64,000 bases of DNA from Deltaproteobacteria bacterium. Lineage in GTDB: Bacteria; Desulfobacterota; GWC2-55-46. Below are positions 50,934-61,468 of this stretch, in pieces; position 1 is the stretch's first letter, and every line of letters starts with the position of its first letter. Made by a program: the position numbers and the translations under genes. The stretch lies in NCBI GenBank assembly GCA_016182655.1, contig JACPGB010000047.1:48367-112366 (forward strand), in the 5' to 3' direction. A model generated the notes under the pieces. It saw only the letters and a program-made list of their open reading frames with translations, was not told the DNA's origin and made no database searches.

Positions 50934-52022
50934 TCAGGAGGCCTTTGCGCTACTGAGCGCGCATTCCTTCAATACCGCCGCCGGTATGGCTGAAAGAGGC
51001 ATGACCGCGTCCACGGCCCCGGCCTTTATCGCCTCTTTAGGCATGCCGAAGACGACGCACGAGTGCTCGTCCTCCGCTATATTGTGCGCCCCGGCCTCCT
51101 TCATCTCTCGCATCCCGTGCGCTCCGTCGTCGCCCATGCCGGTAAGTATCACCCCTACCGCGTTCTTCCCGGCGTACTGGGCCGCGGACCTGAAGAGTAC
51201 ATCGACCGAGGGCCTGTGCCTGGATACGAGCGGCCCGTCCTTTATTTCGACAAAGTACCTCGCCCCGCTACTCTTAAGGAGCATGTGCCTGTTGCCCGGC
51301 GCGATCAACGCCCTGCCCCTTATGACAGTGTCGTTGTCCTCGGCCTCCTTGACCGAGATCGCGCAGGCCTCATCCAGGTGCCTGGCGAAGGAGGCGGTGA
51401 ACTTTTCAGGCATGTGCTGGACTATGACTATCCCCGGTGAGTCGGGCGGCATGGCCTTCAGGAACTCCCTTATTGCCTCCGTGCCTCCGGTGGAGGCCCC
51501 GACGACGATGACCTTCTCGGTCGTCCTCATCATCGCCTTGCTCGCCCTTTTGGCGATCACTGCGTCGGCGCTGAGCTTCGGGGCGACCTGCATCGCCTTT
51601 ATGGGTTTAAGCCGCGCCGAGGCCGCGCCCTTGATCGCGTCACAGATGAATATCCTCGACTCCTCAAGAAACTGCCTCGTGCCGATGTGCGGCTTCAGGA
51701 TGATATCGATTGCGCCGAATTCGAGCGCCTTAAGAGCCGTCTCGGAGCCCGATTCCGCGAGACTCGATATGATGATCGTCGGAATGGGGTGCTGGGTCAT
51801 TATCTTGTGGAGAAATGTCACGCCGTCCATGCGGGGCATCTCGACATCGAGCGTAATGACATCCGGGACGAATTCGCGCATCTTCTCGGCGGCAACGAAC
51901 GGGTCAGAGGCCGTTGCGACGACCTCGAGCTCGGGGTCAGACGCTATTATCTTCGACAGGACCTGTCTTACAACCGCCGAGTCGTCTATGATGAGCACCT
52001 TTATCTTCCTGCCTGCCTCCAT
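50934..52022 (-). CDS. cheB: Chemotaxis response regulator protein-glutamate methylesterase
   Basis: REC domain plus methylesterase domain. Confidence 0.9.
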
Positions 52023-52039
52023 GATCCCCCCCTATGGGC

Positions 52040-52531
52040 CTATTGCCCCTTGGCTATTTTCTTTACGAATACCTCGCCGGTCGCCGTCATGAACATGACC
52101 TTCCGGCCGAATACGCCGCCCGTGTCCCTGCTCAACGTTACTATCCTGCTCTCCGAAAGGGACTCCTCGGCGAGCGCTATGTTACGGTCTCCGACGTTCA
52201 GGAGCCCGCTCGTGCTCTCGAGGATGTTCCCCCCTCCGAACACCTTTGCCCTGATGTTGCCCTTGATCGAGCCGAGGGAGAGCATCTTCTCTATGAGCAT
52301 CGGTATCGCGACGTTCCCGTACTTAGGCGTCCGGAGCCCCTCGCCGTTCCAGAAGGGCAGGAGAAAGTGGTTCATGCCCCCTCTCCTGAGTATCGGGTCC
52401 CAGAGGCATACCGAGACGCAGGAGCCGAGGACCGTCGAGATGATGGACTCGCCGGTCTCGGCGAATATCATGCCGGGGTAGAGGAAATGGGCGTTCGCGG
52501 CCTTCGCATTCACAACGCTCTCCATGCTCAT
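52040..52531 (-). CDS. cheD: Chemoreceptor glutamine deamidase CheD (copy 2)
   Basis: 163 aa with the CheD family motif (VLGSCVSVCLWD). The ATG overlaps the upstream kinase stop (TGATG). The ORF-track ORF 52040..53227 is an out-of-frame artefact. Confidence 0.8.
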   Translation of the reverse strand: MSMESVVNAKAANAHFLYPGMIFAETGESIISTVLGSCVSVCLWDPILRRGGMNHFLLPFWNGEGLRTPKYGNVAIPMLIEKMLSLGSIKGNIRAKVFGGGNILESTSGLLNVGDRNIALAEESLSESRIVTLSRDTGGVFGRKVMFMTATGEVFVKKIAKGQ

Positions 52532-53433
52532 CAGAACCTCTCGCCGTCTGTTCCGAAGAAGAACTCGTTGCCGTCGACGGAGAAGACCGTCGCCTCCTCC
52601 CCGGCCATCTCGGGGACCGTGACCGTGAATACGGCGCCCGCGCCTTTTTTGGAGACGACCGAGATAGCGCCGCCCAGGAGCTCGAGCGTCGACTTGATTA
52701 TCGAGAGCCCGAGCCCGTGCCCGCCGTGGTGCTTGGTCGAGCCGGCCTCCAGCTGGCGGAACCTCTCGAAGACCGCCCCCTGGTCCCGCTCTTCCATGCC
52801 GATACCGTAATCGGCGACCGAGACGGAGAGCTCGCCACCGTCCTTCCACGCCTTGATCGTCACGGGCCTCTCCTCGTAGCTGAACTCTATGGCGTTTGCA
52901 AGCAGGTTCGCAAGCACGCACTGGAGCTTTTCCGGGTCGGTCCTGAAGAAGTGGTTCCTGACCGCATCGGTCAAGGTAGTGGAGACGGTTATCTTCTTTT
53001 CCGCGGCCCTGTGCCGGAAGGCTTCCACGGTGCTTTTCATGAGGGTCGCCATGTCTATCGCGGAAACGCTCAAAACGCTTTCGCCCGCCTCGAGTTCGGC
53101 GGCGGCGAAGATGTTCCGTAGCTGGTAATTCAGGCTGAAGGCCTCTTTCCGGATGGTCCCGACGAGCGAGCGGCATGTCTCCGCGTCGAGGTCCATGGGG
53201 CCGTCGGTTGAAAGTATCAGCTCGCACATGGTGAGGACCGAGGTCAGCGGGTTGTTTATCTCGTTCCTTATGTTCGAGAGGAAGTGGCTCTTTACCTTCT
53301 CGGACTCAAGGAGCCTCTCGTTCAGGGACGCGAGCTTTCTGGTCATCGCGGTGAGGTCGTGGCAGGCCTTGTCCTTGGCCTTGAGCCTCCGCATGAGCTC
53401 GTTTATTATCTCCTCGTCGCGATACCTGTCCAT
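52531..53433 (-). CDS. Cytoplasmic sensor-less histidine kinase (coiled coil + HisKA + HATPase_c)
   Basis: H-box KSHFLSNIRNEINNPL and G-boxes (DYGIGM, GGHGLGL). No TM helix and no REC domain. Confidence 0.8.
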   Translation of the reverse strand: MDRYRDEEIINELMRRLKAKDKACHDLTAMTRKLASLNERLLESEKVKSHFLSNIRNEINNPLTSVLTMCELILSTDGPMDLDAETCRSLVGTIRKEAFSLNYQLRNIFAAAELEAGESVLSVSAIDMATLMKSTVEAFRHRAAEKKITVSTTLTDAVRNHFFRTDPEKLQCVLANLLANAIEFSYEERPVTIKAWKDGGELSVSVADYGIGMEERDQGAVFERFRQLEAGSTKHHGGHGLGLSIIKSTLELLGGAISVVSKKGAGAVFTVTVPEMAGEEATVFSVDGNEFFFGTDGERF

Positions 53434-53456
53434 GGAGCCTCCTCGTATATTCGCTT

Positions 53457-59415: not shown

Positions 59416-59730
59416 TTATCTGTTGTGGTCTGCGGAGCAGTTCAGGTATTCGCCGACGGAGAAGAGGTCTATCACCGCACGGGCGGCCTCCGAGGCGTTC
59501 ACGATTGAAAACGCCCTGCCCGAGGCCTCGGCCTCTCTCTTGGCGAGCAACAGCAGTTGAAGCCCCGTAGTGTCCAATTCGGTTGCGCCCGAGAGGTCGA
59601 TTTGAAGCGGCTCATGGCGCGCAAGCGCCTCAACGACGCCTTTTTTAAGGTCAAGGGCGTGGTATATGTTCATCTCCCCGGTTACGAGCGCGGTACAGAG
59701 GCCGTCCTTGTTTTCGTGCTTTATTTCCAT
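59416..59730 (-). CDS. STAS-domain protein (anti-sigma-factor antagonist-like)
   Basis: Start at MEIKHENKDG. SpoIIAA-like fold pattern. Confidence 0.6.
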   Translation of the reverse strand: MEIKHENKDGLCTALVTGEMNIYHALDLKKGVVEALARHEPLQIDLSGATELDTTGLQLLLLAKREAEASGRAFSIVNASEAARAVIDLFSVGEYLNCSADHNR

Positions 59731-59740
59731 TTTCCCTCCG

Positions 59741-60109
59741 TCACGGCACGATGAGCTTCGAGATCGCCTCAAGCATCTGCTCGGGCTTGAAGGGCTTCAC
59801 GACCCATGCCTTTGCCCCGGCCATCTTGCCTTCCTGCTTTTTATTCTCCTGCGACTCGGTCGTGAGCATGATGACCGGCGTGAACCTGTAGGATGTGTTC
59901 GTCTTCACGTTCTTCAAAAAAGAGATGCCGTCCATGTTCGGCATATTTACGTCGCAGATCATGAGGTTTATCTTCTGCCCCTGGAGCTTGGAGATAGCGT
60001 CCTGCCCGTCGCAGGCCTCGATGACGTCGTAACCCGCCTTCTTGAGCGTCAGGTTGACGACCTGCCTTATCGAGGCCGAATCGTCTATCACCATGATAGT
60101 CTTTGCCAT
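59741..60109 (-). CDS. cheY: CheY-like single-domain response regulator
   Basis: 122 aa with D10, the D53 region (MICDVNMP) and K105 conserved. Confidence 0.85.
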   Translation of the reverse strand: MAKTIMVIDDSASIRQVVNLTLKKAGYDVIEACDGQDAISKLQGQKINLMICDVNMPNMDGISFLKNVKTNTSYRFTPVIMLTTESQENKKQEGKMAGAKAWVVKPFKPEQMLEAISKLIVP

Positions 60110-60130
60110 TTGCCGTTCCTCCCTGGTTCG

Positions 60131-61468
60131 TTAAAAAAATGTCACGTCGCTCTGAGCCACCTTCGGCGTTGCCTTCCCCTTCGCGGCCTTGTTGCCTCCG
60201 GCAACGACCTCGAGATGGACCGACCTCTGGCGCTCCATGACGTAATACTTCTTGATGTCCTCTATGTCGAACTCCGCCGTCCTGCACTCGCCTACGCAGG
60301 CCGCGTCCTCCTTCATGCACTCCTGGAGGCTTACTATGAAGGCGTCGGTGTCGTTGATGGTCCGTATGACGAGCTCTATCTGCTGGCGGACGATGTCCTG
60401 GAACTGCACATTGGCGAGGAGCTCCGTCACTTCCCGCGCCACCTCGTCGCTCGATATCGAAACATGGCCGAGTACCTCGTGGTTCAGCCTGTCGAGTTCC
60501 TTATAGCTCCCGCCGAGCCTGGCGAGCTGGCTTTCGAGCGAGAGGAGCATCGAGCTCTCGTCGCTACCCGCCTTCTGGTTGAGCTTTACCGCGAACTTCT
60601 CCTCTATCTCCCCGGCCATCTCGTTCATCGCGTGCCCTATTTTCGTTGCGGCCGCGTCGGACTGCGTGGAGAGTTTTCTCACCTCCTGGGCTACTATCGC
60701 GAAACCCCTGCCGTGCTCTCCGGCTCTCGCCGCCTCTATGGCGGCGTTCAGCGCCAGCAGGTTCGTCTGGTCGCTTATTTCCTTCAGAAGCTCGACGAAC
60801 CTGGTCATGGAGCGGGCCTTCTCCGCGAGCGCCAGCACCGTCTTGTAGTCCTTGTCCACTTCCTGGAGGCGCCTGTCTATGTACTTGCGGAGATCCGCTA
60901 TCGTCTCCTCGTTCGCCGCAATCGTCTCATTGGACTCAGCGGCGAGCGCCTCGCTCTGGCCCTGGAGCTCCCTTATCGTCGACTGCATCGAGGTCATCGA
61001 GGAGTCGATCTCCTGGGACTGGGCTATTATCCTGTTCGCCGCCTCCGCTGTCTCATCCACTATCTGGTTCAGATGGCCGTTCGTGAGCTTGTTTATGTCG
61101 TGCTGTGTGTTGAAGAACCTCTCGACCTTCGCCTCGCGGTTGCGGTGGTGGACACTGCCTTGCGTGAACTCCTCGACGAGCTCCGTCTCGGATTCGGCGA
61201 TGTCAGGAAGCGGCCTCCTCGCCCATTTTACGCTCAAGCCCTGGATGATGACGGCTCCGGTCACGAGCCATAACGCGCCTTCGATCGCCCTCGCGTACCT
61301 CCCTGTCAGAAACCCTCCGAGGAGTTCATTTATATGGTCCAGGAGGAAGAGTTCGATTACGACCGATGCCGCGAGCGCGGCGAGCGTGGATTTAAAAAGT
61401 ATCCGCCTGTACGCCGGGATATACAGGAAGAGGAACTGGTCGGATCTTTTTTTGGCGGCTGATGTCAT
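60131..61468 (-). CDS. Methyl-accepting chemotaxis protein (two TM helices, short periplasmic loop)
   Basis: MA domain ([33 protein letters not shown]). Confidence 0.85.

Follow-up and report, generated by a model that had tools for sequence, protein, structure and literature searches.

A kinase-like protein without the phospho-acceptor histidine is encoded next to CheD in a compact deltaproteobacterial chemosensory operon

What is a histidine kinase with neither a sensor nor a receiver domain doing inside a chemosensory operon? The question is raised by eleven consecutive genes on the minus strand (positions 50934-61468) of a 64,000-nt stretch of DNA, hereafter the window, from a Deltaproteobacteria bacterium (contig JACPGB010000047.1, assembly GCA_016182655.1). 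The genes follow the order mcp-cheY-STAS-cheA-mcp-cheW-cheR-cheD-(HisKA/HATPase protein)-cheD-cheB; both MCPs (methyl-accepting chemotaxis proteins) are referred to in this order as MCPa and MCPb, and the two CheD proteins as CheD1 and CheD2. The name HKL (histidine-kinase-like) is given here to the 300-aa HisKA/HATPase protein. We describe HKL as a protein that lacks the residue defining a histidine kinase and whose constant genomic companion is CheD2.

The original prediction, which described HKL as a kinase without sensor and receiver, agrees with the Pfam results; it had overlooked that the phospho-acceptor His is missing. Pfam and AlphaFold2 (AF2) place a coiled-coil of only ∼45 residues before the dimerization and histidine phosphotransfer (DHp) domain, and nothing that would serve as a sensor or a receiver domain. 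When HKL was compared by phmmer with proteins of solved structure (E 2e-26), its H-box FLSNIRNEINNPLT aligned with FIANISHELRTPLT of Thermotoga HK853, so that Asn57 falls on His260, Glu58 on Glu261 and Asn61 on Thr264. The replacement of His is shared by the relatives of HKL. A database search returned a tight family of proteins of ∼292-328 aa, 46-99% identical to the window protein and, where annotated, called ‘HAMP domain-containing histidine kinase’; Asn occupies the His position in 119 of 120 of these homologues. In alignments of 28 and 72 members (the latter with 46-85% identity to the window protein) the family H-box reads F-L-S-N-I-R-N-E-I-N-N-P-L. Asn at the His position is invariant in 72/72 aligned sequences, the invariant residues including N57, E58, N61, N176, N180, E183, D208, G210 and G212. 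We found no alternative conserved His close by on the DHp helix; His50 of HKL sits in a variable column.

Another substitution affects the N-box, NLLANAIE183F in HKL, where the Lys present in HK853 (NGVKYS) and in GacS (NAIKFT) has given way to an invariant Glu183. Other sequence motifs are conserved: HKL retains the Mg-binding Asn180, the G1 (DxGxG; D208-x-G-x-G) and G2 (GHGLGLS) boxes and, counted from the His position, an acidic residue at +1, Asn at +4 and Pro at +5, and its receiver-docking helix is nearly invariant across phyla. A weak Pfam match to HATPase_c_2, the SpoIIAB-like domain, was also seen (7.1e-7). NCBIfam holds no HKL-specific model, and its generic histidine-kinase models match far below their cut-offs.

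The AF2 model of HKL (predicted local distance difference test, pLDDT, 81; predicted template-modelling score, pTM, 0.71) consists of a canonical DHp hairpin, with helix 1 at residues 6-74 and helix 2 at residues 84-116, and a normal catalytic and ATP-binding (CA) domain, with disorder confined to its ATP lid and to the 21 C-terminal residues of the protein. The top Foldseek match of this model was the pseudokinase DivL (4q20, E 1.5e-20; sequence identity ∼28%), and comparison with HK853-RR468 complexes, including the BeF3- complex 5uht, gave TM-scores of 0.84-0.86 (normalised by target length). The disordered tail is itself a conserved feature: the pattern ..DGNEF[FIL]F, an acidic linker and E[RK]F-COOH is kept in 74 of 83 sequences and the final Phe in 75 of 83. 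This tail resembles the C-terminus of MCPb (..NEFE[KR]F or EFVKY-COOH). We also considered whether HKL could be a decaying pseudogene; full length, identity of 46-85% across phyla and dozens of invariant residues rule this out.

With Asn57 in place of His and Glu183 in place of the N-box Lys, HKL would be barred from starting a canonical phosphorelay. It is very probably a non-autophosphorylating protein, and kinase activity is not expected from its sequence. A phospho-acceptor His is the defining feature of a histidine kinase, and HKL, which has the HisKA fold without it, should not be classed as one.

To see in what company HKL occurs, we surveyed a collection with one genome per species, in which at least 394 matched stretches encode an HKL relative; the best 80 loci were mapped, with neighbours located by tblastn with the window proteins. 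The comparison of gene neighbourhoods in relatives, proposed along with the original prediction, had a clear outcome: a CheD2 orthologue lies directly downstream of HKL in 80/80 loci, which come from different species genomes. Sampling in the reverse direction, from a CheD2 search, we saw HKL directly upstream in 3/3 CheD2 homologues. Thus HKL-CheD is a conserved, obligate two-gene module, and the two proteins are, with good confidence, functional partners, a link drawn from gene adjacency.

The 80 loci belong to metagenome-assembled genomes (MAGs) of ‘Deltaproteobacteria’/Thermodesulfobacteriota, to Nitrospirota (in many cases magnetotactic), to Magnetococcales, Rokubacteria and Desulfuromonadales, and to Cytophagales, among them the cultured Rhodocytophaga aerolata KACC 12507 (L054). 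The genes around the pair vary. In a tally that also takes in six look-up loci duplicating or closely matching others, we observed the orders CheR-HKL-CheD-CheB (∼23 loci), HKL-CheD-CheY-CheY-CheW-MCP-CheA (8 loci), CheB-HKL-CheD (5 loci), CheY-HKL-CheD-CheY (2 loci, L045 and L074) and CheA-HKL-CheD (2 loci). Many delta-type MAGs have the full order MCPa-CheY-STAS-CheA-MCPb-CheW-CheR-HKL-CheD-CheB, as do some Nitrospirota. At ∼25 loci no che gene was identified immediately beside the pair, and at several of them not one lies within 10 kb; one Magnetococcales pair sits between cation-efflux and FtsX/MacB genes. The order dnaN-HKL-CheD-gyrB was seen at ∼19 loci of magnetotactic Nitrospirota, in agreement with precomputed Pfam calls (L012, L014, L015, L018-L022, L024-L026, L032, L033, L079 and L083-L086; HKL is at ∼10001 in most of them). 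In Ca. Magnetobacterium, Magnetominusculus and relatives the pair lies inside the origin block dnaA-dnaN-HKL-cheD-gyrB-gyrA; the slot between dnaN and gyrB is, we assume, the usual position of recF.

The other cheD gene of the window, cheD1, is a different case. The original prediction spoke of a duplicated CheD, and two CheD genes are indeed present, but the proteins share ∼29% identity and are distant paralogues; this value, together with differing conservation patterns, rules out a recent tandem duplication of cheD. In alignments with Thermotoga maritima CheD (PDB 2F9Z chain C) the Cys and His of the active site are present in both proteins (LGSC, H-x-x-LP), while NCBIfam CheD models match them only below cut-offs. 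Among the mapped loci CheD1 is limited to that of the window and to L003 and L017, its next database matches being at most 44% identical. CheD1 and these two orthologues have in common a CxxxCxxC insertion that is absent from CheD2 and from T. maritima CheD and could be a putative metal-binding or redox site. The two CheDs do bracket HKL in the window, as had been noted, but the bracket does not define the unit: CheD2 alone is linked to HKL throughout, and with CheD1 limited to three loci we consider HKL-CheD2 the functional unit and the CheD-kinase-CheD order a lineage-specific embellishment. How common this order is had been regarded as decisive; it is the kinase-like-CheD pair that is common (the survey matches given above), whereas CheD-kinase-like-CheD is rare. 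CheD1 would then be a lineage-specific extra deamidase. At one more locus, L089 (5345-7453 and 9675-11433), HKL-CheD is followed by a second CheD, with HATPase_c_2 and REC-SpoIIE genes nearby; this double-CheD arrangement differs from that of the window and adjoins partner-switch components.

What could a protein of this kind do beside CheD? No CheC, CheX or CheZ domain protein was found by Pfam among the 11 cluster proteins. CheD stimulates the phosphatase activity of CheC and of CheX. CheD is reported to bind CheC, and phosphorylated CheY (CheY~P) strengthens the CheC-CheD interaction (PMC3513319). What HisKA proteins need in order to act as phosphatases is the Thr or Asn at His+4, and the His itself may be of lesser importance: CrdA~P had a half-life of 0.7 min with wild-type CrdS, 2.6 min with H371A, and 47.6 min with N375A, against 53.5 min for CrdA~P alone, and in EnvZ, too, His is dispensable for phosphatase activity (PMC3510030). 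Given that HKL keeps the His+4 Asn, the Glu, the Pro and the docking helix, that CheD binds CheC, and that CheC, CheX and a stand-alone CheZ are missing here, we propose tentatively, and at somewhat less than an even chance, that HKL acts on a phosphorylated receiver as its phosphatase or its sensor.

Under this proposal an HKL dimer would dock a phosphorylated receiver (CheY~P and/or the receiver domain of CheB) on its DHp helices in the manner of bifunctional HisKA kinases; Glu58 and Asn61 (His+4) would speed up dephosphorylation, or else HKL would merely read the phosphorylation state. Binding of CheD2 to HKL would couple the availability of CheD at the receptors to phosphatase activity, and the disordered tail would probably tether HKL to a partner, be it CheR, CheB, CheY or CheD. 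The HKL-CheD2 pair would thus act as a functional analogue of CheC-CheD and CheX-CheD where CheC, CheX and a stand-alone CheZ are absent.

The type of chemosensory system in which the pair operates can be judged from the receptors. In comparison with Escherichia coli Tsr (36H), MCPb has symmetric 7-residue deletions, one per arm, and with 7 residues missing from each arm it falls into heptad class 34H. Its C-terminus follows the pattern [ED]F[VEI][KR][YF] in 20 of 22 MCPb orthologues. CheR/CheB-tethering pentapeptides are defined by the pattern x-aromatic-x-x-aromatic, and the MCPb tail fits it. A fused receiver on CheA and/or an output other than CheY is typical of many systems of the alternative cellular function (ACF) type; by Pfam, CheA of the window has no fused receiver and a plain single-domain CheY is present. 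Receptor classes pair with chemosensory classes as 34H-F8, 36H-F7 and 44H-F9 (PMC9321776). We are therefore inclined to regard the system as F8-like.

MCPa is a receptor of a different kind. Read by eye, it has two N-terminal hydrophobic helices with little sequence between them; its alignment with the 44H receptor TM1143 is limited to the N-arm and the hairpin tip, and MCPa is not 34H-like. Its divergent C-terminal arm carries the motif FQDIVRQ, and F-Q-D-x-x-x-Q is the active-site signature of CheZ (PMC7750401). Within the longer stretch (V/I)QFQDIxxQQ the FQDxxxQ motif is invariant in 16/16 MCPa orthologues (window, L005, L010, L011, L017, L027-L030, L036, L039, L044, L053, L056, L057 and L064). 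For 7 of the 8 members tested the Pfam CheZ model gave 19-25 bits, short of its gathering score (30.7), and phmmer with E up to 10 found no CheZ match for the MCPa C-terminal region in the PDB. A literature search brought up no description of a receptor with a CheZ-like FQDxxxQ motif. From its sequence MCPa could be a receptor with a built-in putative CheY~P phosphatase site. Beyond FQDxxxQ the arm has a Cys-rich stretch, a YYVMEKQR..H motif and a terminal (V/I)TFF.

Two further proteins of the operon deserve mention. The gene for a STAS-only protein lies between cheY and cheA at 18 loci (the window and 17 related loci). Its ATG start, which gives 104 aa, matches the independent call on contig L001; a 118-aa open reading frame (ORF) starting at TTG would overlap cheY. 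The conserved Ser/Thr column of its D-(T/S)-x-G motif is presumably the position phosphorylated in SpoIIAA-type antagonists, and the protein may be phosphorylated there. We regard it in the first place as a probable CheS-like accessory of CheA and CheY. CheA carries at the site of P2 two tandem MshEN-like motifs, scored at 34.9 bits by NCBIfam NF053729 (c-di-GMP-binding, MshE-related; cut-off 38). The MshEN motif has been given as RLGxx(L/V/I)(L/V/I)xxG(L/V/I)(L/V/I)xxxxLxxxLxxQ, and MshEN-CheA fusions have been mentioned (PMC5013675). The motifs are kept in most CheA orthologues; in the lineage of the window the leading guanine-stacking Arg is Leu, and the canonical RLG appears twice only in the Nitrospirota orthologue L064. 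Binding of c-di-GMP (cyclic di-GMP) by this region is uncertain. A REC-PAS-GGDEF-EAL protein is encoded at 11474-13948 on the plus strand, ∼37 kb from the che cluster, and may be relevant if the MshEN-like module of CheA responds to c-di-GMP.

How do these observations fit other explanations of HKL? The original prediction saw in it an active orphan histidine kinase feeding a second phosphorelay and/or a STAS partner-switching output in an ACF pathway. The presence of HisKA and HATPase_c domains with conserved G1 and G2 boxes, the conserved Ser/Thr of the STAS protein, the unusual MshEN-like insert in CheA and the lack of flagellar, pilus or other obvious output genes, none of which were found in the 64-kb window, could all be cited in its favour. 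We consider it highly improbable. The family-wide change of His to Asn, with a variable His50 as the only His nearby, and of the N-box Lys to Glu speaks against a phosphorelay; the invariant neighbour of HKL, where a cognate receiver had been envisaged, is CheD, neither a receiver nor the STAS protein. The step from STAS to partner switching is not supported either, a STAS protein beside cheY/cheA having a precedent in chemotaxis, CheS (PMC12654446, PMC8429497). The ACF assignment, in turn, is countered by a CheA without a fused receiver, a plain CheY and a 34H receptor of the F8 type (PMC9321776), with the class itself remaining provisional. A related idea would turn HKL into a GHKL Ser/Thr protein kinase like SpoIIAB/RsbW that phosphorylates the STAS protein (at the Thr in DTTG) or CheD, so that the chemosensory system would control a partner switch. 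This would account for the G1 and G2 boxes and Mg-binding Asn180 being strictly conserved despite the loss of His; it is also in line with the weak HATPase_c_2 match, with the Ser/Thr of the STAS motif being kept in 18/18 orthologues and with HATPase_c_2 and REC-SpoIIE genes close to HKL-CheD in L089. SpoIIAB-type kinases, however, are not known to have a DHp hairpin, and in HKL the hairpin is complete and highly conserved, including the receiver-docking H-box region. Besides, a STAS gene is missing from the 10 kb around most HKL-CheD pairs, and the Lys-to-Glu change in the N-box is unfavourable to phosphoryl transfer; we think this explanation very unlikely.

It is also conceivable, if unlikely, that HKL performs no catalysis and instead imitates a receptor or serves as a scaffold, its DHp four-helix bundle and receptor-like tail being a decoy that draws CheD, and maybe CheR and CheB too, off the receptors, with nucleotide setting its conformation. 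CheC binds CheD via a receptor-like helix; the disordered, MCPb-like tail is conserved in most HKL sequences, and DivL, the top structural match, is a pseudokinase that acts by binding and not by catalysis. Yet by our reading of the sequence HKL is devoid of the methylation/deamidation consensus E-E/Q-x-x-[AS]-[ST] seen in MCPb, and a pure decoy would not need invariant Glu58 and Asn61 at catalytic positions. The receptor mimic overlaps with the explanation that we regard as the best overall, and does not exclude it, CheC being both a phosphatase and a CheD-binding protein. That explanation, to which we would give an even chance, is that HKL-CheD2 is a kinase-dead, CheD-coupled accessory module in an F8-like chemosensory operon. 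A broader version, in which HKL-CheD is a widespread and so far unrecognised adaptation and signal-termination module, HKL being a histidine kinase turned in evolution into a dedicated nucleotide-gated phosphatase for phospho-CheY or phospho-CheB, or a sensor of either, and CheD providing the coupling to receptor modification, we hold to be doubtful. Several points weigh against the accessory-module explanation and its phosphatase component. In some HisKA proteins, as PleC H610A shows, phosphatase activity does depend on the His (PMC3510030). A simple phosphatase model leaves unexplained why the N-box Lys is invariably Glu and why G1 and G2 are so strictly conserved. With FQDxxxQ invariant, MCPa may already supply a CheY~P phosphatase, freeing HKL for another role. 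The F8 assignment was made from the heptad class of MCPb only, MCPa falling outside that class, and the connection of HKL with CheD was likewise drawn from gene adjacency. Finally, the dnaN-HKL-cheD-gyrB order in magnetotactic Nitrospirota hints that the pair needs no particular che operon.

The operon as a whole is as compact as was originally described. The ORF listing and Pfam show all eleven genes where they were expected (Table 1), with Pfam domain E-values from 1e-13 to 1e-68, and the intergenic distances, in gene order 21, 10, 11, 106, 13, 62, 1, 23, −1 and 17 nt, agree with a tightly packed minus-strand operon; the value of −1 corresponds to the overlap of the HKL gene and cheD2, in which the HKL stop and the cheD2 start share TGATG. 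Independent gene calls on an identical 17.8-kb metagenomic contig (L001) give the same genes. The nearest relative is MAG GWB2_55_19, and the lineage is one of uncultured groundwater/sediment ‘Deltaproteobacteria’; CheY orthologues in related clusters have 72-92% identity. What the original prediction emphasized, that one compact chemosensory operon carries parts foreign to the E. coli and Bacillus subtilis paradigms, stands.

In the 62 nt that separate cheW from cheR a terminator-like scan detected a strong GC-rich hairpin with a weak T-tail, a putative attenuator or RNA processing site that might divide the operon in two for transcription or processing. The same type of scan showed no convincing terminator in the 59-nt gap between cheB and the tetrahaem cytochrome gene, which, with the DsbA gene next to it, was located downstream of cheB as had been predicted. 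Co-transcription of cheB, the cytochrome gene and the DsbA gene is possible. The cytochrome has a Cytochrome_C554-type C-terminus and an N-terminal region of ∼300 aa without a Pfam match. The cytochrome-DsbA pair also follows cheB in the related delta-lineage loci L003, L030 and L088 and is absent from most other loci; this neighbourhood may reflect lineage synteny or a functional tie to redox sensing.

Table 1. Coordinates of the genes and sequence features discussed, in the order of the operon; numbers after domain names are Pfam E-values
Feature	Position in the window	Strand	Description
MCPa	60131-61468	-	445 aa; MCPsignal 3.8e-28; no HAMP; divergent C-terminal arm
MCPa FQDIVRQ motif, residues 356-362	60383-60403	-	CheZ-like FQDxxxQ
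CheY	59741-60109	-	122 aa; single-domain response regulator; Response_reg 3.8e-29
STAS-only protein	59416-59730	-	104 aa from ATG; STAS_2 1.3e-13, STAS 1.8e-9
STAS DTTG motif, D-(T/S)-x-G	59563-59574	-	Ser/Thr column conserved in 18 orthologues
CheA	57245-59404	-	719 aa; Hpt (P1), H-kinase_dim (P3), HATPase_c (P4), CheW (P5)
CheA tandem MshEN-like motifs at P2 site, residues 267-326	58427-58606	-	two motifs of 24 residues each: LLGEILVKGGALTKTELDEALSLQ, LIGEIFVTEGMVQSDIVDAALEKQ
MCPb	55432-57138	-	transmembrane; 4HB_MCP, HAMP, MCPsignal (Pfam)
MCPb C-terminal pentapeptide-like EFVKY	55435-55449	-	from orthologue alignment
CheW	54924-55418	-	164 aa from ATG; CheW 3.9e-37; same start called in L001
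Hairpin in cheW-cheR gap	54889-54914	-	GC-rich; 11-bp stem, CTCCGGGGGGC-AAAA-GCCCCCCGGAG; weak T-tail
CheR methyltransferase	54007-54861	-	CheR 1.7e-56, CheR_N 1.6e-14
CheD1	53457-54005	-	182 aa; GTG start 1 nt past cheR stop; CheD 1.5e-21
CheD1 CxxxCxxC insertion, residues 62-69	53799-53822	-	insertion of ∼10 residues
HKL	52531-53433	-	300 aa; HATPase_c 1.3e-24, HisKA 3.1e-7; coiled-coil, DHp, CA
HKL H-box FLSNIRNEINNPL	53245-53283	-	Asn57 codon at 53263-53265
HKL disordered C-terminal tail (DGNEFFF...ERF)	52534-52584	-	FSVDGNEFFFGTDGERF; from AF2 and alignment
CheD2	52040-52531	-	CheD 9.6e-26; start overlaps HKL stop (TGATG)
CheB methylesterase	50934-52022	-	N-terminal receiver domain; CheB_methylest 7.4e-68, Response_reg 1.6e-22
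Tetrahaem cytochrome	49585-50874	-	59 nt past cheB; four CxxCH motifs
DsbA	48945-49574	-	10 nt past the cytochrome gene

Many chemosensory systems without CheC have CheD, whose role there is poorly understood, and HKL offers a hypothesis about its partner that can be tested. The protein is found in at least several hundred species-level genomes of five phyla and adds a uniformly His-to-Asn family of pseudo-histidine kinases to the few known cases, such as DivL; automatic annotation and censuses of signal transduction probably count its members as kinases. Genes drawn as ‘non-che’ within clusters of the F8 type may belong to the pathway as integral components. If the proposed role is true, HKL-CheD would be a third independent solution for terminating the CheY~P signal, after CheC/CheX and CheZ, it would explain the task of CheD in many systems that have no CheC, and the module may act alongside MCPa, a receptor with a CheZ-like active site of its own.

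Among known systems the CheC-CheD pair of B. subtilis and T. maritima and the CheX-CheD pair of Borrelia, the latter reportedly described by Moon et al. in 2016, resemble HKL-CheD2 in that a CheD gene lies beside that of a would-be CheY~P partner. The genes for HKL and CheD2 are adjacent and translationally coupled, and the catalytic Cys and His are kept in both CheDs; the difference is that HKL has the HisKA/HATPase fold and not that of the CheC/CheX/FliY family. With HK853-RR468, EnvZ, CrdS and NtrB (in phosphatase mode) HKL shares the DHp-CA fold as well as three residues that come after the His site, acidic at His+1, Asn at His+4 and Pro at His+5. Unlike these bifunctional HisKA kinases it has Asn for His and Glu for Lys, it has no sensor, and its partner gene is that of CheD.

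The STAS gene of the window may have its counterpart in cheS of Sinorhizobium meliloti and Agrobacterium, which codes for a protein with a STAS domain alone and stands next to cheY and cheA in a che operon that has cheD as well; S. meliloti CheS binds CheA and CheY1 and speeds up CheY1 dephosphorylation (PMC12654446, PMC8429497). The CheS clusters are of class F7 with 36H receptors, and the window has an MshEN-like module at the P2 site of CheA; the likeness to CheS is one of domain and position. Comparable to the operon as a whole are the F8 ‘E. coli-like type 2’ clusters of Geobacter and Desulfuromonas, which have 34H receptors, some of them, like MCPb, with pentapeptide-like tethers (PMC2577667, PMC8235581, PMC9321776), and which contain cheD and non-che genes (PMC2577667, PMC8235581). 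A kinase-like gene has already been drawn in such clusters (Mo et al. 2022, legend of Fig. 1B). The accessible parts of the papers on F8 clusters leave the extra genes unexplained or call them histidine kinase, and mention neither the missing His nor the pairing with CheD. The searchable literature outside subscription papers, a 2026 preprint on HisKA-like profiles included, contained no description of a His-less kinase paired with CheD.

DivL of Caulobacter has, like HKL, a histidine-kinase fold without the His, and it has taken on the task of sensing a single-domain response regulator in its phosphorylated form (PMC4211667). DivL differs from HKL in its PAS sensor domains, in the Tyr at the phospho-acceptor site, in acting on CckA in cell-cycle control and in having no link to CheD. 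HKL belongs neither with DivL nor with the CheC family: it is DivL-like in principle and CheC-like in genomic logic.

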